Positions 17,708 through 34,364 of a stretch of 36,646 nt of DNA are shown piece after piece; positions within the stretch are counted from its first letter, which is position 1, and each line of letters opens with the position of its first letter. The notes below the pieces were generated by a model. That model saw nothing but the letters and a program-made list of their open reading frames with translations, did not search any database and was not told the origin of the DNA. The translations under genes were made by a program, and so were the position numbers. The stretch is from an uncultured Candidatus Saccharibacteria bacterium (GTDB lineage Bacteria > Patescibacteriota > Saccharimonadia > CAILAD01 > BJGX01), in the NCBI GenBank assembly GCA_964552475.1, contig CAZKFZ010000007.1, positions 1-36,646 of the forward strand, read 5' to 3'.

Positions 17708-17714
17708 AACAAAT

Positions 17715-17720
17715 ATTATA
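17715..17720 (-). promoter_or_regulatory. -10 box placed for a leaderless transcript (152-aa gene)
   Basis: The minus strand reads TATAAT, then 7 nt (ATTTGTT), then ATG at 17707. There is no room for a Shine-Dalgarno sequence. Confidence 0.4.
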
Positions 17721-17740
17721 CCAGTTATGTTTGGTATCTA

Positions 17741-19279: not shown

Positions 19280-22099
19280 TTACAAAACCTTCAAATTCTT
19301 GAATTTCTTGTGTTTTCTTAGTTTTGCAACACATTTATCAACGCTTTTGCTAATGTATTTTAAGCTTGGGTTAGAACCACAATCCAATACTATTCTAATA
19401 CTTAGCCTTTTTTTATTAATCTTAATAAGTTCTGGGTTTATAAAAACACTCACAAGCTGTACTTTTCTAATATTGTCGCTGGTAGTTAAATTGTCTACCA
19501 CATCCTGCCACCAAACATTACTATCCACTTCAATAGTAATATCGCGCTGATTAAGTTGGTAACCAAGTGGTAATTCTATTTTTGCGTACTTGGGAGTTAG
19601 TAAGTCTTGTGACATCTCAATTTCGGCATAGCTAATCTCATTGTTAAATTTTTGATTTACTAGTATTACGCTATCTACCTGTCCAAACCATCCAATAGAC
19701 TTATTATTTACCAAAATATCTGCAGCTCTACCTGGTACAAAAAGATTATTATTACCTGGAACAATTTTATGTTTCCAACGATATTTTTGAGCTATCTCTC
19801 CAATAACTGTACCTAGTCTATCGATACTATTTTTGCCCACCAATGTTATTGCTAGCTTCCACGTCTCACTCTTGCCGTGTTTTTCATTTTTTGACTTATT
19901 ATATACTCTTGAAACTTCAAAGAAACCATAGCTTTCTTTCCAGTAGTCGCGATTATTAACTGCCGTCTGTATGTGACTCATGATTAGTGTGCTACGTAAA
20001 AACTCCTGTTCTTTGCTAAGTGGGTTTACTATTTTAAAATGCTTATCGGTTTCACTTTTGGCGAGCTGGAGTTGCTTGTGACTCACAAATGAGTATGTCA
20101 TTACCTCATACAGACCATTTGTGACCAGGTTATTTTTTAATTCTTGTGCTTTTAATATAAGCTGATGGTCGGCAGTGTTTGTTGGTGGTAGCTGGGGGAG
20201 GGTGGCGGGCATATTTTCATAGCCAACTATTTTGGCTACTTCTTCATATAAATCCTGTTCTATTTTAATATCATCTCGCCACCAAGGAGCTGTAACAGCG
20301 ACTGTATGATTGAAATTATCTACATAACGTCTAGCACCAAGATAGCCAGGGTTATTTGCAAACTCTTTTAGATCAACTTCAATAACTTCTTGATTATTTC
20401 TTTTCACCCATTTTTTATTTTTATATTCATACATTGCGGCCATTACAACTTTGTTATTACCAATATACAATCCGTTGTGACCAACTTCTTTTTTTTGTCT
20501 AAGCTGTTGTTTTACGTGTTTTCCGTGGTTATCTTTTAAGTAATAGTGATCATCTACCGAATTCTCTATTTTACCTTTATAAAAAACTACATCTCCTGGT
20601 TTTAAGTTACTAACTTCTATGGCCTCTCCGTGTTCGAATTGTGCCAATGCAGTATGTCCTATGTATACGCCTATAAGTGAGTATACATAATCAATAAGAT
20701 ATGAGCAGTCAAAAGCATTAATTCCATCTTCTTTAAAATTCGCCCCCCATTTGTATGGTTTACCCAAGTGCTTTTTAGCTTCTTTGGTAATAGAGAATTG
20801 TTCAGCCTCAAACCCTCTTTTACGTAGTCCGTTAATAACCTCTTTTTCATTTAACTTAAGACCTAAGAACTTTTCGGCTTTTCGAATTCGTAATCCAGTA
20901 TGTTGAATCCAGGGCCAATCATAAAGTTGATCGAAAGGACCATTAATAATTTTGGCTTGGCAAATAGTTTTGAATAAATAAAGAAGACGTTCAGTTGCAT
21001 AAATTGAGAGGGGGAGAGGTAAGCCTTTTTCAAACCTAGCACTTGCTTCCGTGCGAATACCATGACGATTAGCCGACCTACGTATTCTAGTGGCATTAAA
21101 ATTAGCAACTTCTAATACAATCTCTTTTGTATTATTATCAACTTCGGTGTTTACACCACCCATTACTCCGGCCAAACCAATAGCACTACTATTGTCGGCT
21201 ATTACTATGTCTTCTTTACTGAGTTTTCTATCTACACCATCTAGTGTGGTAATTGTTTCGTTATTTTTAGCAAACCTAACTTGTAAATTTCCTTTTAGTT
21301 TGGTTTTGTCATATGCATGAGAGGGTTGACCAGTCTCTAGCATTACAAAGTTGGTGATATCTACAATAGGATTAATCGGTCTCATCCCAGCCGCCTGTAA
21401 GTTTTCCACAATCCAGTCGGGTGTTTTACTCTGAATATTTATTTGTAAAACTGCGCTTACAAAGCGCTTACACTCAACGGTTTCTTTGACCTTTACGACT
21501 TCTCTATCTCTAAATTCAATTTTTGCATGCTCTGGCTCAGCTAACTCAGTACCAACGGAATTTGCAAAAATTTCTCGTGCTAAACCATAAACAGAGAGCA
21601 TGTCGGGGCGGTTTGTAGGGGTCTTAATATCCACGATATCACCCATATTGTCTATGTCGCACAATGATATACCAAGGGGGAGGTCAGGGTCGAGAACAGC
21701 TATACCAGAGTGGTCATCTCCTCTACCCAACTCTCTTTCTGAGCAAATCATACCTGAAGATTTTTCACCACGTAGTACTACTTGCTCAATCTTATCACCA
21801 CTTGGTAAAATTGCACCTGGTTTTGCATAGGCTACTACTTGACCTTCTCTTATATTCGGGGCACCACAAACCACCTTAGCTTTAGTTTTACCAAACAAAA
21901 CTTCTGCGACTTTCAAACGATCGGCATTTGGATGTTGCTTAGTTTTTAAAACCCTAGCAGTTACAATTTTCACATCTAAGTTATTAGAAGTTATAATTGA
22001 CTCCACTTCAACTTCTGTTTTCTCTAGCGCAGTGACAATACTGTCTGTACTAAGAGGTTTTTTAAAGTATAGGTTTAAGAAATTAACAGGTAAAAGCAT
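19280..22099 (-). CDS. pheT: phenylalanine--tRNA ligase beta subunit carrying an inserted NlpC/P60-like domain
   Basis: The ORF shows a tRNA-binding OB domain (HPNADRLKVAEV...CGAPN), a B3/4 domain (NRPDMLSVYGLAREI), a B5 domain (VTAPWWRDDIKIEQDLYEEVAKIVGYENMP) and a C-terminal FDX-ACB-like domain. I place the start at ATG 22099, one nt after the pheS TAA, rather than at the overlapping track start 22144. Confidence 0.93.
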   Translation of the reverse strand: MLLPVNFLNLYFKKPLSTDSIVTALEKTEVEVESIITSNNLDVKIVTARVLKTKQHPNADRLKVAEVLFGKTKAKVVCGAPNIREGQVVAYAKPGAILPSGDKIEQVVLRGEKSSGMICSERELGRGDDHSGIAVLDPDLPLGISLCDIDNMGDIVDIKTPTNRPDMLSVYGLAREIFANSVGTELAEPEHAKIEFRDREVVKVKETVECKRFVSAVLQINIQSKTPDWIVENLQAAGMRPINPIVDITNFVMLETGQPSHAYDKTKLKGNLQVRFAKNNETITTLDGVDRKLSKEDIVIADNSSAIGLAGVMGGVNTEVDNNTKEIVLEVANFNATRIRRSANRHGIRTEASARFEKGLPLPLSIYATERLLYLFKTICQAKIINGPFDQLYDWPWIQHTGLRIRKAEKFLGLKLNEKEVINGLRKRGFEAEQFSITKEAKKHLGKPYKWGANFKEDGINAFDCSYLIDYVYSLIGVYIGHTALAQFEHGEAIEVSNLKPGDVVFYKGKIENSVDDHYYLKDNHGKHVKQQLRQKKEVGHNGLYIGNNKVVMAAMYEYKNKKWVKRNNQEVIEVDLKEFANNPGYLGARRYVDNFNHTVAVTAPWWRDDIKIEQDLYEEVAKIVGYENMPATLPQLPPTNTADHQLILKAQELKNNLVTNGLYEVMTYSFVSHKQLQLAKSETDKHFKIVNPLSKEQEFLRSTLIMSHIQTAVNNRDYWKESYGFFEVSRVYNKSKNEKHGKSETWKLAITLVGKNSIDRLGTVIGEIAQKYRWKHKIVPGNNNLFVPGRAADILVNNKSIGWFGQVDSVILVNQKFNNEISYAEIEMSQDLLTPKYAKIELPLGYQLNQRDITIEVDSNVWWQDVVDNLTTSDNIRKVQLVSVFINPELIKINKKRLSIRIVLDCGSNPSLKYISKSVDKCVAKLRKHKKFKNLKVL

Positions 22100-22100
22100 A

Positions 22101-23093
22101 TTAAAATTGCTCCAAAAAACTAAATCTTGGGCGCCATAACTCACGCAGATCTGTCAAGCCATATTTTATTACCGCAAACCTCTCTGCTCCCCATCCAAAC
22201 GCAAACCCTGTGTATATATTAGGGTCTACCCCACCGTTTCTTAATACTTGGGGATGTACCATACCCGCACCGCCCAACTCTAGCCATTTTTCGTTGTACC
22301 AACAGTCTAACTCAACAGATGGTTCGGTATAAGGAAAATAGCTCGCTCTAAATCTTATCTCAACATCAGGTCCGAGTAGCCCCCTTACGACAGTCAGTAA
22401 TGTTCCTTTAAGATCAGACATCGAAACACCCTCACCTACTACCAAGCCTTCCACCTGGTTAAAAATCCAGGCATGTGTAGCATCTTCATCTTCATTTCTA
22501 AAAACTCTACCGGGCACAATGATTTTATATGGCGGTTTATTTTGCTCCATAAATCTTACTTGCATACCAGATGTATGTGATCGTGGCAAAAGGTTCATTT
22601 TGCCATTATCAATATAAAAAGTATCCTGCATATCTCTAGCTGGATGTGAATCAGGCATGTTGAGAGCTTCAAAGTTATACCAATCAGATTCTATCTCTGG
22701 ACTATCGACAATTGCAAATCCCAACTCTGTGAATATCTTATAAGTCTGAGACAACACCAAGCTTGTAGGGTGAAAGTGGCCGTAGCTATACCCATATATA
22801 CTATTTAGCAAACTAAGATCTTTAGGTTCATAAAAGCTAGTTGTGTTTATACGAGTTAAGGCCTCTCTAAACATTGCTTCAAGTTTATTTCTCGCTTGGT
22901 TTAGATTTTTACCTGCATTTACCTTATCAGCTAATGTAAGATTTGGAAGGTTCCTTAACTCCTTCGATAAAGCACTATCTTTTCCTAAATAATTAGATTT
23001 AGCCTTATCAAGATCACTTTTCGAACCAGCTTTTTCAAAAGCAATTCTAGCAACTTCTATATAATCATTTGAGATTGATTTAAAATTATTCAT
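22101..23093 (-). CDS. pheS: phenylalanine--tRNA ligase alpha subunit
   Basis: The 330-aa ORF contains class II motifs such as FRASYFPYTEPSVELD and GAGMVHPQVL...GFAFGWGAERF. Confidence 0.96.
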   Translation of the reverse strand: MNNFKSISNDYIEVARIAFEKAGSKSDLDKAKSNYLGKDSALSKELRNLPNLTLADKVNAGKNLNQARNKLEAMFREALTRINTTSFYEPKDLSLLNSIYGYSYGHFHPTSLVLSQTYKIFTELGFAIVDSPEIESDWYNFEALNMPDSHPARDMQDTFYIDNGKMNLLPRSHTSGMQVRFMEQNKPPYKIIVPGRVFRNEDEDATHAWIFNQVEGLVVGEGVSMSDLKGTLLTVVRGLLGPDVEIRFRASYFPYTEPSVELDCWYNEKWLELGGAGMVHPQVLRNGGVDPNIYTGFAFGWGAERFAVIKYGLTDLRELWRPRFSFLEQF

Positions 23094-23104
23094 AAATACT
23101 GCCT

Positions 23105-23491
23105 TTATGCTTTTCTGGTTCTAAAATACAGTTCAATAAGTAGTACTGTAAGAGCAAAAAGTATTATATCTCTTATACTTAAACTCTTTAGGCTAGAAAG
23201 TGCTAATAACAGAGTTAAGGCAAAGCCTATTAAAAAGCCAGTTCTTAGAGATTCTATTATTATCTTGCTAGGCTGCATGCGTTTTTCTTCAATCCTTAAC
23301 TTTAAGAGATAATCTAGTAAAGTTATTAAGCTAGACAAACAAGCAAGTATTCCAACAAACCAAAAGGTTATTGCGGCTGGTCCAAGCATTCTTGGAGTAA
23401 AATTAAACATCACATATATTACAGTGCTGAAGGAAATTACAAAAACTATGCTTAAAATAGAGATTGTTATAGTTATGGTCCTATTTCTCAT
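23105..23491 (-). CDS. hypothetical polytopic membrane protein
   Basis: The 128-aa ORF has about four hydrophobic helices and lies 11 nt upstream of pheS on the same strand. Confidence 0.65.
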   Translation of the reverse strand: MRNRTITITISILSIVFVISFSTVIYVMFNFTPRMLGPAAITFWFVGILACLSSLITLLDYLLKLRIEEKRMQPSKIIIESLRTGFLIGFALTLLLALSSLKSLSIRDIILFALTVLLIELYFRTRKA

Positions 23492-23867
23492 ATGTATACT
23501 CTATTATCTGACAAAAGTGATTAATTGTACAGTATAAAGCCATAGGTGCGTATAACGACAATTAATTTGCTCAAATATTGAACACATTATATATATTACT
23601 AATCAGTATGTGCTTAATGAGTATATTTTTTGTTCTTTTTATATTAATAACAATTTTTAGTATTACAATAATTTAACTTGTTAGTATTGTTGTTGCGTAA
23701 CTAAGTTATAAGTTTAGCTACATAAGCTGATTATGTCTAAGCTACGATTAAATTTGTGGATATTGTGTATAACTCGAAAAATTTCTGTTAGCATTTTATA
23801 ACATTAAAATGATTTGTATTAGTTTTTTATGTTAGTGAATATCGACATATTATGTAAAGTGTTTTTA

Positions 23868-23893
23868 TATAAAAAATCGCCAGTAACGGCGAT
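23868..23893 (-). terminator. rho-independent terminator of the unclassified RNA
   Basis: The minus strand reads ATCGCC-GTTACT-GGCGAT followed by TTTTTT. The stem pairs 23876-23881 with 23888-23893, and the A-run on the plus strand is 23871-23876. Confidence 0.6.
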
Positions 23894-24394
23894 TAATTTT
23901 AGAATTATTGCAATATGGTTACGGGCCAACGTATCTGCCCTGTAAAAGTAAAACTTTAAGTGGCACACGCTGGCCCGTTAAAGTCTGCTCTAAAAGCGAT
24001 TCTAAAGCGGACATTGGCTGTCAATTCACAATATCTACAAAAGATAGCAAAAATTGTGGTTGACGACTTCCCTACCACTCTTTTGGCAGTCCGGCTAGAC
24101 TATGCACCCCAAAAAAATAGGGCGCAAAGTCTAGCCGTCTCCGTCGGAATGATAGCGCTATATATAACTAGGTAAGGTGCAAAACGGTTTGTATTTTGTA
24201 TTATATATAGCATAAACCTCGAACAGTAGGGAAAATCTGGTCATAAAAAGCAAGGGGGCTGCTTTTTATGAACCAGGTCTTCCCTACCGAGCAGGATAAC
24301 GGCGATCCTTTATAGTTCATGGATCGTAACATTGTATTGATAAAACATATGTGTGTGGCATATTTTTATTTTTGTTTTTAATGAACTATTACTT
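23868..24394 (-). ncRNA. unclassified structured non-coding RNA (~525 nt transcription unit)
   Basis: No ORF of 60 aa or more lies on this strand, and the unit is bracketed by a consensus promoter (24401-24429) and a hairpin+U6 terminator. The 23920-24330 core is visibly more GC-rich than its AT-rich flanks. Helix set 1 is 24226-24233/24280-24287, 24237-24241/24272-24276 and 24242-24252/24260-24270. Helix set 2 is 24093-24101/24128-24136 plus 24103-24109/24120-24126. Helix 3 is 24027-24032/24053-24058. Helix 4 is 23921-23932/23967-23978, and its loop (23953-23959) can pair with 23978-23984 to form an H-type pseudoknot. Two helix positions are G-U on the minus-strand RNA but A-C on the plus strand. 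Confidence 0.55.
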
Positions 24395-24400
24395 AGTACA

Positions 24401-24429
24401 ATTGTATCAAATGCTTATGTTTATGTCAA
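24401..24429 (-). promoter_or_regulatory. near-consensus sigma70-type promoter driving the unclassified RNA
   Basis: The minus strand reads TTGACA (24429-24424), a 17-nt spacer, then TACAAT (24406-24401). It lies ~55 nt downstream of the trpS stop. Confidence 0.6.
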
Positions 24430-24481
24430 TATTTATTAACGTAATTATTACAATCATACCTGTTGAGCTATATAGACTTAT

Positions 24482-25465
24482 TTACAACAAACCAATTTTA
24501 TTTTTAACTTCTTCAAGCTTTTTGTTGGCTATTTCGCGAGCTTTAGAGTTTCCCTTCTCTACTATGCTCATTAATTTCGATTCATCGCTTCGCACAGATA
24601 TAAACTTAGACTGTAGATCTGCTAGATGACTAGATACTAATTCACCCAGATCCGCTTTAAACTCTGCATATCCAGATTTTGCATATTTTTTCTCTATTTC
24701 AGTAAGACTCATGTTACTAAAACCAGAGTATATCTCCATTAAGTTAGATATAGCCGGCTTAGATTCTTTGTTGTATCTTACTATGTTGTCAGAATCGGTG
24801 ACTGCACGCTTGAACTTATTAAGTACGCTATCTGTAGGATCAGATAGTAGAACAGAACTATCAGGATTATTACTTTTACTCATTTTATGTTTAGGGTCGT
24901 CTAAACTCATTATTCTAGATCCAGTTTTTGGTATAGTTGCTTTAGGTAAAACAAAAGTTTCGCCATATAATTTATTGAATCTTGTGGCAATATCACGTGT
25001 TAGTTCTATATGCTGTATCTGATCTTCACCAACTGGCACTTCATTACTATCATATAATAATATATCTGCCGCCATAAGTGCTGGATAATTAAAGAAGCCC
25101 GCCAATAGGCCTTCTGGGCCTATCTTTTTTGCCTTATCCTTGTATTGAGTCATTCGGCTAAGTTCACCCATAGTTACATAGTTTTCTAATATCCAGGCAA
25201 GCTCACTATGCGCCGACACCATCGACTGAACCAGTATAATAGATTTATTTGGGTCAACTCCAACAGTAATTAGCCAAGCAACCAAATCTAGAGTTCTTCG
25301 CTTGAGCTCTACAGGGTCTTGTCTAACTGTAATAGCATGGGAATTTGGTATAAAGAATATTGTACGGTTTTCACCCTGTTCTTTAGGCCAGTGCTTCATA
25401 GCTCCTAGGTAGTTACCAATGGTCATATCGCCAGTTGGTTTCAGACCTGAAAATATAGTCTTCAT
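24482..25465 (-). CDS. trpS: tryptophan--tRNA ligase
   Basis: The 327-aa ORF has a class I HIGH-like GNYLGA region, a KMSKS motif (KHKMSKS), and overall TrpS length and layout. Confidence 0.95.
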   Translation of the reverse strand: MKTIFSGLKPTGDMTIGNYLGAMKHWPKEQGENRTIFFIPNSHAITVRQDPVELKRRTLDLVAWLITVGVDPNKSIILVQSMVSAHSELAWILENYVTMGELSRMTQYKDKAKKIGPEGLLAGFFNYPALMAADILLYDSNEVPVGEDQIQHIELTRDIATRFNKLYGETFVLPKATIPKTGSRIMSLDDPKHKMSKSNNPDSSVLLSDPTDSVLNKFKRAVTDSDNIVRYNKESKPAISNLMEIYSGFSNMSLTEIEKKYAKSGYAEFKADLGELVSSHLADLQSKFISVRSDESKLMSIVEKGNSKAREIANKKLEEVKNKIGLL

Positions 25466-25472
25466 AGGTAAT

Positions 25473-25478
25473 ATTATA
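25473..25478 (-). promoter_or_regulatory. extended -10 box placed for a leaderless trpS transcript
   Basis: The minus strand reads TGATATAAT, then 7 nt (ATTACCT), then ATG at 25465. The box sits in the 18-nt gap after rmuC. Confidence 0.45.
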
Positions 25479-25483
25479 TCATA

Positions 25484-26575
25484 CTAATCATCTTGCCGAG
25501 GCTTTTCTACTTCAAGTAGGTCAATAACAGCATCTGTTGAAGCTATTTTCACAACATCTTTATCGATTTTCTTAAGTTCTCTGTGTGCAGTATTGTAGTG
25601 GTTTACGGTAGTGCCAAGTGAATTTCCTAACTTGTGCATATATTCGTCATAGTTCCCAATATGTTTACCTAGTTGACCAACTCTTTTTTGAATTTCCTTG
25701 GCCTGGTCTTCTATCTGAAGACTTCTTAAGCCTTGAAGGACTGTTTGAAGATAAGCTAAGAATGATGTTGGCGACACAATAATCACTCTTTTTTCCCTAA
25801 ATGCATACTCTATTAAGTCTTGTGAGCTTGTTTGCATGGCGCCAATTTTATTAACTAGTAGATCATAATATATTGCTTCTGAAGGTATAAACATAAAAGC
25901 AAAATCCATTGTACCCATACTAGGTTGAATATATTTGGAAGTCTCATCTATTCTAGACTTAAGGTCGGCTTTAAACTGTTTAATAATGTTAGCTTTGGTA
26001 GTAACGTCCTTTGTTTCAATAAGTCTGTTATAGTTCTCTAAGCTAAATTTCGAATCAACTGGTAGGATCTTATCATCTTGTAAGAATATGGCAGCGTCTA
26101 CAACCATATCCTTACCGTCTTCACCACGACCTATTTTATGTTGCAACTTAAACTGCTCAGGTGGTAATACGTTTTCTAAAACTGAGCCTAGGTAGTACTC
26201 ACCTAAGACTCCTCTTTGTTTAGGGTTTGATAAGACGTTCTGAAGTGTTTTGAGTTCGTCGGCCACATCTACAACCTTTTTATTAGTTTCGTCGAGTTTT
26301 GTAAGTCGATTATTGACATCAGCAATAAGTTTCGCAGACTCACTAAGCTGCTTTTGCACTGATTCGCTGGTACTCGCTTGTGACCTATCGATGCGCTCGT
26401 GAATTTGCGTTTGCGATTGTGTTAAGGATTGACTAAGACCTTGTATATCTTGCTTGAGAGAACCTACTGCCTCCTCTTCTTTTAAGGACTGTAAACGGGA
26501 ATTAAATGATAAGAACAGCATAACGAAGCCCAGAATCATGATAAAAAGTAATATAATTAGTAGAATTGTAATCAT
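25484..26575 (-). CDS. rmuC: DNA recombination protein RmuC
   Basis: An N-terminal TM helix and coiled coil are followed by the RmuC nuclease-like core (FAFMFIPSEAIYYDLL, VIIVSPTSFLAYLQ). I prefer ATG 26575 (MITILL...) over the TTG at 26593 used by the ORF track. Confidence 0.9.
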   Translation of the reverse strand: MITILLIILLFIMILGFVMLFLSFNSRLQSLKEEEAVGSLKQDIQGLSQSLTQSQTQIHERIDRSQASTSESVQKQLSESAKLIADVNNRLTKLDETNKKVVDVADELKTLQNVLSNPKQRGVLGEYYLGSVLENVLPPEQFKLQHKIGRGEDGKDMVVDAAIFLQDDKILPVDSKFSLENYNRLIETKDVTTKANIIKQFKADLKSRIDETSKYIQPSMGTMDFAFMFIPSEAIYYDLLVNKIGAMQTSSQDLIEYAFREKRVIIVSPTSFLAYLQTVLQGLRSLQIEDQAKEIQKRVGQLGKHIGNYDEYMHKLGNSLGTTVNHYNTAHRELKKIDKDVVKIASTDAVIDLLEVEKPRQDD

Positions 26576-27005: not shown

Positions 27006-27175
27006 TTATAAACTATTATAGCATAACAACTATATATTGGTTAGGGAATGTTTATATATTATCTAGTTTTATTTATATATAGACTGTATTATACAATATT
27101 ATGAGCATTGATATTTTACTTGTGTGACGGGTAAATATTATCTGCAAGTAATGTGTATATGAGCACATTTAATAT

Positions 27176-34303: not shown

Positions 34304-34364
34304 GATTATCTACATTATAACCAATTTAGTAGTCTATAGCACATCATATTCAACTGGTCTGCGG

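Follow-up and report, generated by a model that had tools for sequence, protein, structure and literature searches.

Large Folded RNAs of Bacteria

Large folded noncoding RNAs (ncRNAs) are rare in bacteria; the known ones comprise the rRNAs, RNase P RNA, tmRNA, group I and group II introns, OLE, GOLLD, ROOL, HEARO, and raiA. To our knowledge, each of them is either a core machine of the cell or a lasting puzzle. The subject of this analysis is a stretch of ~525 nt on the minus strand (23871–24397) of a contig from an uncultured Candidatus Saccharibacteria bacterium (CAZKFZ010000007.1); the 36.6 kb of DNA analyzed as a whole (38% GC) are referred to here as the window. The stretch lies between trpS and the pheS–pheT genes, and it is probably the gene for a stand-alone ncRNA of a previously undescribed family found in one Candidatus Saccharibacteria lineage. 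The Saccharibacteria (TM7) are ultra-small epibiotic or parasitic bacteria with heavily reduced genomes of ~1 Mb, from which most non-essential DNA has been shed.

Among the described large RNAs, OLE RNA of the Bacillota (RF01071) offers a close likeness. It is 500–600 nt long, has its own expression signals, forms many helices, carries invariant blocks in junctions and loops, is restricted to a lineage, and is encoded beside the gene of a small multi-pass membrane protein. The Saccharibacteria RNA shares all of these traits, with a 128-amino-acid (aa) membrane protein (ORF128) in the place of oapA. In contrast to OLE, it belongs to another phylum and forms a unit separate from ORF128; no match to OLE in sequence or structure and no relation between ORF128 and OapA is detected. 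An OLE-like membrane association of this RNA would be pure speculation.

ROOL and GOLLD (RF03087 and RF01998) are likewise large ornate RNAs of mysterious function found in metagenomes, including those of lake water. However, they are often carried by phages or prophages near tRNA genes, whereas the RNA described here is chromosomal, is not found in IMG/VR, has no tRNA genes nearby, and matches neither model. The RNase P and T-box RNAs are discussed below.

Homologous Loci

A collection of homologs and an inspection for covariation, both proposed in an earlier reading of the window made without database searches (the sequence-only reading), yielded ~40 homologous loci with ~30 distinct sequences in three clades, whose helices are kept by many compensatory changes. 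The closest public relative of the tryptophanyl-tRNA synthetase (TrpRS) encoded by trpS, at 91% identity, belongs to an uncultured Candidatus Saccharibacteria genome, others at 74% and 69% belong to Saccharibacteria or Patescibacteria, and the region 3′ of trpS is conserved in three GTDB representative genomes (loci L005, 89% identity; L006, 73%; and L007, weaker). A scan of JGI metagenomes with a pattern of the 3′ domain returned 31 loci; 27 are true homologs, and four are GC-rich coding sequence. Contigs encoding TrpRS relatives supplied 11 further loci, namely, L116–L120 and L132 as well as a more distant third clade (L121–L123 and L128–L129), with TrpRS 62–63% identical.

Nothing similar was detected with an nhmmer profile and two covariance models at 77 other trpS-adjacent loci, which included two more distant Saccharibacteria (L013 and L022) and many other Patescibacteria. 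The RNA is absent from the viral contigs of IMG/VR, where a single chance match lies inside a 1306-aa open reading frame (ORF). It is present in the window as a single copy.

The same organism is represented in two independent Logan assemblies of short reads, which contain contigs (L001 and L002) that end 105–135 nt past trpS and others (L003 and L004) that start within or after the RNA region; these breaks may reflect strain variation or low coverage.

Transcription Signals and Coding Potential

The sequence-only reading had described 23492–24481 as free of credible ORFs. This ~1 kb, which carries no annotation at present, contains on both strands nothing but short ORFs that overlap one another and reach 71 aa at most, and none of them is kept in homologs; a 92-aa ORF lies antisense to the end of trpS. 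No ORF is conserved across the homologs, the longest ones (27–102 aa) being found on different strands and at different positions.

The promoter described earlier on the minus strand (24401–24429; TTGACA, 17 nt, TACAAT) is present as claimed. It is of the sigma-70 type and consists of a −35 TTGACA (24424–24429), a 17-nt spacer, and an extended −10 element, TGATACAAT (24401–24409), matching 11 of 12 consensus positions and carrying the TG extension. A promoter scan places it as the top-scoring promoter-like site within 23000–25000, and it is kept in every full-length homolog, including the spacer, TAAGCATAAGC. Transcription would begin ~7 nt past the −10 element and end in the U-tract of an intrinsic terminator at 23871–23894 (minus strand), formed by an 8-bp stem with a 4-nt loop (23894–23875) plus a T-run, U6 in the RNA. 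This terminator, also recognized by the sequence-only reading as the downstream bracket of the unit, is the sole terminator-like site within 23000–25000. Every homolog has a terminator at the same place, and the terminator sequences are unrelated. The ends of the RNA are thus predicted from the geometry of promoter and terminator, and its abundance and stability are likewise read off sequence signals.

The spacer of the promoter (24410–24423) holds a conserved direct repeat, ATAAGC ATAAGC. In clade 3 (L121, 5815–5850; L128, 4520–4560), a third ATAAGC copy gives rise to a palindrome, ATAAGCTTAT, that closely precedes the −35 element. The repeat and palindrome could be the binding site of a regulator.

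Between the two signals, the core of the unit has a GC content of 39–43% against 20–29% in its flanks, in agreement with the GC-richer core reported earlier. The 541-nt minus strand folds at −192.8 kcal/mol, whereas dinucleotide-shuffled sequences reach −117.7 ± 6.9 kcal/mol; the resulting z of −10.9 compares with −7.8 for the plus strand. Values of −9.5 and −8.2 were obtained for clade 2 (L089) and clade 3 (L121), respectively.

RNA Architecture and Covariation

Full-length homologs share one layout, in which an A-rich unpaired 5′ segment is followed by H1, H2, a variable sub-domain, H5, a junction, H6, H7, H8, a tail, and the terminator. At least eight helices are conserved, including a long-range helix that closes the H3–H5 domain. 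All elements lie on the minus strand. Three hairpins predicted by the sequence-only reading, at 24226–24287, 24093–24136, and 23921–23978, were recovered as H2, the upper part of H5, and H8, respectively, and all three covary in homologs.

The invariant bases cluster in loops and junctions, namely, in the H1 loop (UGAWCUCU), in both arms and the loop (CCCCCUUG) of H2, in the junction GGUWGGGAAG, and in the internal loops of H8. Helix sequences drift freely with pairing retained.

The 5′ segment, AGUUCAUUAAAAACAAAAAUAAAAAU (24362–24387), is A-rich, unstructured, and conserved; clade 3 also has an A-rich leader. H1 (24303–24326) carries a conserved loop of 11–13 nt, (Y)UGAWCUCUWAAA, on a variable, covarying stem, such that the stems differ among homologs while the loop stays. 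H2 (24224–24289) is a 28-bp interrupted hairpin and the most conserved element. Its arms are nearly invariant, the 5′ arm bears the first copy of a 10-mer, GGUAGGGAAG, and the loop is GCCCCCU (24253–24259). In the alignment, 95.8% of H2 cells are paired and 6 of the 28 pairs show compensatory change, whereas sliding the partners by 1–3 columns lowers pairing to 41–56%.

The H3 sub-domain (24157–24211) differs in shape among clades. H5 (24085–24142), an irregular hairpin of ~24 bp, is free in sequence except for the conserved base, GGAG/CU.CC. A plain MAFFT alignment of clade 1, made with no fitting to the structure, shows 95.8% pairing in H5, with compensatory change in 16 of 24 pairs, against 34–44% for slid controls. 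The sequences of clades 2 and 3 are unrelated here, yet the same hairpin folds at −30 to −40 kcal/mol. Cross-clade treatment of H5 and H6 with RNAalifold and MAFFT was hampered by one-column offsets; per-sequence folds, the clade 1 alignment, and covariance models were used instead. A cross-clade model alignment of H5 (A8) was set aside, being contaminated by antisense matches to the hairpin.

The 3′ domain comprises H6 (24020–24064), a GUCAAC…UUGAC hairpin with a variable inner stem; H7 (23983–24012); and H8 (23922–23977), in which CGGGCC…GGCCCG encloses a further helix, UGCC/GGCA, and a small hairpin at the tip. Across 29 distinct sequences from all three clades, aligned to the model structure (alignment A6), 92.5% of H6–H8 cells are paired and 23 of 37 pairs show compensatory change, with 27–43% pairing in slid controls. 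The tail, UAACCA (23916–23921), which complements the UGGU of the junction motif, does not vary within or between clades 1 and 2 and is missing from clade 3.

The helices also indicate which strand is expressed. G-U pairs are abundant in them when read from the minus strand. As the sequence-only reading had pointed out, the positions 24106/24123 and 23929/23970 form G-U pairs on the minus strand and A-C mismatches on the plus strand, and a covariance model of the 3′ domain scores 152 bits on the minus strand versus 25 bits on the plus strand. Conserved compensatory structure, strand specificity, and the lack of a conserved ORF, the generic marks of a structured ncRNA, are found together at this locus.

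Between the A-rich segment and H1 lies the block AUGCCACA (24354–24361), which is invariant in clades 1 and 2 and absent from clade 3, and which may be a pairing partner or the start of a tiny, non-conserved ORF. The latter option leads to a rather improbable alternative in which the transcript serves as mRNA for a tiny peptide (MPH…) or has a dual function, its 3′ portion being long and structured. The codons AUG CCA CAY are invariant in clades 1 and 2 directly past the unstructured leader, the peptide of clade 2 reads MPH(T/I/L)KPP-stop and its codons differ synonymously (AAG/AAA, CCA/CCU, and UAA/UAG), and several clade 1 versions finish with Asp-Pro-stop. However, clade 3 has neither an AUG at this place nor an equivalent ORF, the frame is only 5–15 codons long with nothing conserved beyond MPH, and the site has neither a Shine–Dalgarno sequence nor the leaderless arrangement of other genes in the window. 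In addition, the frame leaves out over 85% of the conserved RNA, and this remainder evolves under base-pairing constraint. A mini-ORF may be translated in some clades, but it does not explain the conservation.

Long-Range Helix and Alternative Pairings

The H3–H5 domain is closed by a helix of the form ACUGNNN × NNNYGGU whose two strands lie immediately 3′ of H2 and immediately 5′ of the junction motif, respectively. The window has ACUGUUC (24221–24227) as the 5′ strand, which extends over the final 4 bp of the 3′ arm of H2, and its 3′ strand is GAGUGGU (24074–24080), followed by a second copy of GGUAGGGAAG (24067–24076), the whole segment occupying 24064–24080. Covariation is seen in the three outer pairs, namely, positions 5 (UG/UA), 6 (UA/CG/UG), and 7 (CG/GC). 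The U-to-C change beside GGU converts a G-U pair to G-C and fits only the long-range helix with ACUG.

The two copies of the 10-mer create an ambiguity, as either one can pair with the H2 3′ arm, UUUUCCCUACUG. If the second copy did so in the window, it would form with the long-range helix a continuous helix of 14 bp, which excludes the lower part of H2. The H2 lower stem has a compensatory change of its own (G-C to A-U in clade 2), and a U-U mismatch is retained in the second copy in most sequences. On account of these two features, the inner part is better supported as the base of H2 and the outer part as the long-range helix. It is nonetheless conceivable that the RNA may toggle between two folds, one with the H2 base closed and one with the long-range helix extended.

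Further pairing partners were considered. The H-type pseudoknot of the sequence-only reading (23953–23959/23978–23984) has its 7-bp complementarity in the window, but this is not kept in homologs. Its 5′ partner, ACUUUAA, varies (GUUCU in L006), and its loop strand belongs to a local covarying hairpin (AAAG/CUUU versus UGUUU/AAACA). The candidate pairings UGCCAC/GUGGUA, tail ACCA/UGGU, and H2-loop CCCU/H8 AGGG all involve invariant bases, on which covariation is silent.

Comparison with Known RNA Families

The window and 141 kb of homologous loci were searched with all 4227 models of Rfam 15 at the gathering thresholds, and 23400–24600 was searched with permissive filters at E ≤ 10. None of the 4227 families was found at gathering in the window or the homologous loci, including the OLE, ROOL, GOLLD, raiA, and HEARO models. 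The permissive search of 23400–24600 gave chance matches only (13.8–23 bits, E 1.1–9.8), namely, to terminator-driven sRNA models (rseX and STnc430), miRNAs, and snoRNAs. The sequence-only reading had named RNase P, tmRNA, 6S, SRP, T-box, OLE, ROOL, GOLLD, and raiA as the families to scan for, and the outcome is negative for each. Neither a tRNA nor a tmRNA is detected by ARAGORN in the window and 17 homolog loci. The ACCA tail, which recalls tmRNA, is internal, being followed by the terminator, is absent from clade 3, and comes with no Rfam or ARAGORN match. SRP RNA is marked by conserved internal loops and by a domain IV hairpin whose loop is of the GNRA type, and 6S RNA is one long helix opened by a bubble at its center; the RNA considered here is multi-domain, its H2 loop is the 7-nt GCCCCCU, and it matches neither in Rfam.

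It is very unlikely that the RNA is a strongly diverged member of a known universal family. The chief candidate among these would be RNase P RNA, for which a negative Rfam scan is insufficient alone. Diverged forms from the Candidate Phyla Radiation (CPR) are known to escape Rfam thresholds: Lui et al. (2021, PMC8172020) had to cut the RF00010 threshold to 5 bits before 10 out of 35 complete CPR genomes yielded an RNase P RNA. Because CPR RNase P RNAs can score as low as this, the architectures were compared as well. The RNA is similar in size to type A RNase P RNA (RF00010), and its invariant GGGAAGUCG resembles the CR-I element, GGAAAGUCC. Neither RF00010 nor RF00011, however, matches at gathering in the window and 12 homolog loci or at E ≤ 10 in 23400–24600, and the order of elements is wrong. 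Some 330 nt separate the CR-I-like block from the 5′ end, and just three simple hairpins come after it, with no P7–P11 cruciform of the specificity domain, no P12, and no P15. The GUC of this block pairs locally at the base of H6. A conserved ACAGAA…CGNCUU strand that could form P4, the CR-V partner (ACAGAA..CGGCUUA in bacterial RNase P RNA), is absent, and GACUU, the sole complement present in the window, is retained neither in L006 nor in clade 2. No P1 forms between the two ends of the RNA, the 5′ end being an unpaired A-rich stretch. Threading of the RNA onto RNase P, after the published CPR forms (PMC8172020), was rejected for its wrong topology and missing P4. With regard to the other universal RNAs, the negative ARAGORN result stands against tmRNA.

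The sequence-only reading had left a choice between a very divergent known RNA and a novel large ncRNA, having found no convincing RNase P, tmRNA, SRP, or T-box motif. Rfam, ARAGORN, and topology concur on these four families; the architecture fits none of them, which makes the novel ncRNA the better supported of the two options.

Independence from the pheST Operon

At almost every locus, the order of genes is trpS, the RNA, an AT-rich spacer of 350–550 nt, a membrane protein of 125–133 aa, pheS, and pheT. The position of the RNA upstream of pheST and in the same orientation, together with the terminator at its end, raises the alternative of a leader or attenuator that acts in cis on ORF128–pheS–pheT, for example, a T-box-like or otherwise tRNA- or amino-acid-sensing element that controls terminator read-through. 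This alternative is considered unlikely, though it is the most plausible of the rival explanations. In its favor, the invariant UGGU complements the ACCA end of tRNA-Phe, and the two mutually exclusive pairings recall riboswitch logic. In common with the T-box family (RF00230), the RNA combines a location upstream of an aminoacyl-tRNA synthetase operon, an invariant UGGU that could pair with the NCCA end of a tRNA, alternative pairings, and an end terminator.

The differences from a T-box are nevertheless extensive. The RNA is ~2 times as long; it has no Stem I features, no specifier loop, and no conserved antiterminator/terminator pair; and no Rfam T-box match was found even at E ≤ 10. A specifier-like loop with a conserved Phe codon is missing, and the GUUC of the leader is lost in clade 3. 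An anticodon-mimic version of the idea was rejected, as the UGGU sits in a covarying helix and the UGAAC of the H1 loop varies to UGAUC and hence does not mimic a Phe anticodon.

The arrangement of signals likewise disfavors a leader. Since the terminators of homologs are unrelated in sequence, with no conserved antiterminator partner, there is no conserved antiterminator logic. The operon has its own conserved promoter, TGTACA-17-GATAAT, placed 13–20 nt ahead of the ORF128 ATG and 350–550 nt beyond the RNA. In four loci (L098, L106, L110, and L132), purD is inserted right after the terminator and the RNA is retained; it is also retained in L121, where a methyltransferase gene separates it from trpS. 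The RNA is therefore bound to neither neighbor. The separate downstream promoter, the unrelated terminators, and the gene insertions together favor an independent gene over a leader.

A feature acting at the level of DNA, be it a palindrome cluster, a segment of a replication origin, or a mobile element of miniature size, is the least credible of the alternatives. The long near-perfect inverted repeats, the breaks inside the region in short-read assemblies of two samples, and the DnaA boxes of the adjoining spacer would fit such a feature. However, the element is present once in the window and always in the same syntenic place, and neither copies at other genomic places nor target-site duplications were seen. 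Pairing is kept through G-U, which is an A-C mismatch on the opposite strand; promoter and terminator lie on one strand; and the locus shows no GC-skew turn and is not found in viral contigs.

Proposed Function and Significance

The RNA appears to represent a new class. Rfam 15 has no model for it, and none of the full-text literature searched describes such a Saccharibacteria RNA, with subscription-only papers and unpublished lists lying outside the search. The strong promoter, the terminator, the helices that tolerate sequence change, and the invariant loops and junctions point to a stable RNA that would adopt a defined three-dimensional shape and bind proteins or other RNAs. By analogy, this set of signals appears unlike that of a base-pairing sRNA or a leader and like that of RNase P, SRP, or OLE RNA. 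It is hypothesized that the transcript would be made in quantity as a stable RNA acting in trans. Its most likely role would be as the scaffold of a ribonucleoprotein, in which the loops and junctions would serve as sites of protein binding or tertiary contact.

Functional leads are limited to the position of the gene between two aromatic aminoacyl-tRNA synthetase genes and beside that of a four-helix membrane protein. That the RNA is a new ornate class, confined to Saccharibacteria and doing more than passive scaffolding, is a tentative proposition of low probability; it might act as a ribozyme, as a sensor in trans that toggles between the two folds, in coupling to tRNA or aminoacylation, or in an OLE-like membrane ribonucleoprotein with ORF128.

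Several points weigh against the identification of an independent, undescribed RNA gene and its proposed role. Coverage by Rfam and the literature is not exhaustive, and an unindexed or unpublished description could exist. The ends, abundance, and stability of the RNA are known solely from sequence signals, and its protein partner is still putative. As the H6–H8 alignment was fitted to the model structure, it is biased towards pairing, and with only three clades the many compensatory cells amount to few events. The proposed switch rests on two alternative pairings that both fit the variation, neither being proven to form. With the whole neighborhood syntenic, moreover, the adjacency of the RNA to ORF128 and the synthetase genes may be meaningless.

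The RNA is probably important to its hosts, because a 0.5-kb ncRNA gene with a near-perfect promoter has been kept in reduced genomes even where TrpRS is only ~62% identical. If confirmed, it would add an RNA class to a poorly understood phylum and fill a gap of ~1 kb in genome annotation. It would also provide a compact target for cryo-EM or chemical probing, and genetics could follow in the few cultivable Saccharibacteria, should they carry it.

Neighboring Genes

The genes flanking the RNA all lie on the minus strand, with trpS at 24482–25465, ORF128 at 23105–23491, pheS at 22101–23093, and pheT at 19280–22144. The wider neighborhood is syntenic in the lineage, in the order addB-like, sprT-like, rmuC, trpS, RNA, ORF128, pheS, and pheT.

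ORF128 is a small membrane protein of 125–133 aa in homologs, with ~4 hydrophobic segments and 43% identity between clades 1 and 3. It is always encoded directly upstream of pheS and carries the motifs LGPxxxTFWF, LLALSSLRSLxxRD, and E..FRTR+. It matches no Pfam family; one source names a relative “FtsH-binding integral membrane protein.” The search for relatives, made for co-occurrence, reached only those of at least 54% identity.

The pheT product, the β subunit of phenylalanyl-tRNA synthetase (PheRS), contains an NlpC/P60 peptidoglycan-hydrolase-like domain (aa 461–547) between B3/4 and B5. This architecture, an unusual fusion for an aminoacyl-tRNA synthetase, is also recorded at homologous loci. 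In clade 3, a prephenate dehydratase with PDT and ACT domains is encoded a few kb upstream of rmuC–trpS–RNA–pheST (L121, 261–1154; L128, 312–1187). Prephenate dehydratase is an enzyme of phenylalanine biosynthesis, and the neighborhood thus collects several functions linked to aromatic amino acids.

TrpRS 59–61% identical to the Saccharibacteria enzyme is encoded in Ignavibacteria-type contigs (L124–L126 and L130–L131), where the neighbors are wholly different (ddl, divIC, uppS, bamA, and ompH). This distribution hints at a horizontal transfer of trpS between Saccharibacteria and Ignavibacteria-type groups.

DnaA Boxes and Leaderless Genes

The ORF-free spacer downstream of the RNA (23492–23868) contains four DnaA boxes within 380 nt, compared with ~0.4 expected. 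A perfect box, TTATACACA, at 23764–23772 (minus strand) is the sole one in the 36.6 kb and is abutted by a one-mismatch box, ATATCCACA, at 23755–23763; further one-mismatch boxes lie at 23609–23617 and 23547–23555. The same spacer holds a box pair or a single box in L006 and L118, as well as in L121 and L128 in the opposite orientation. The cluster is probably not oriC because GC skew does not turn at the locus and the neighboring genes are all on one strand. The boxes may instead mark DnaA control of the ORF128–pheST promoter.

Many genes of the window, trpS included, have a TATAAT-like −10 element just 6–10 nt before the ATG and no Shine–Dalgarno sequence, as in the upstream regions 25466–25490, 27006–27030, 17708–17732, and 34304–34328. 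Other genes of the window have a clear GGAGG. This pattern suggests that leaderless mRNAs are widespread in this part of the genome.

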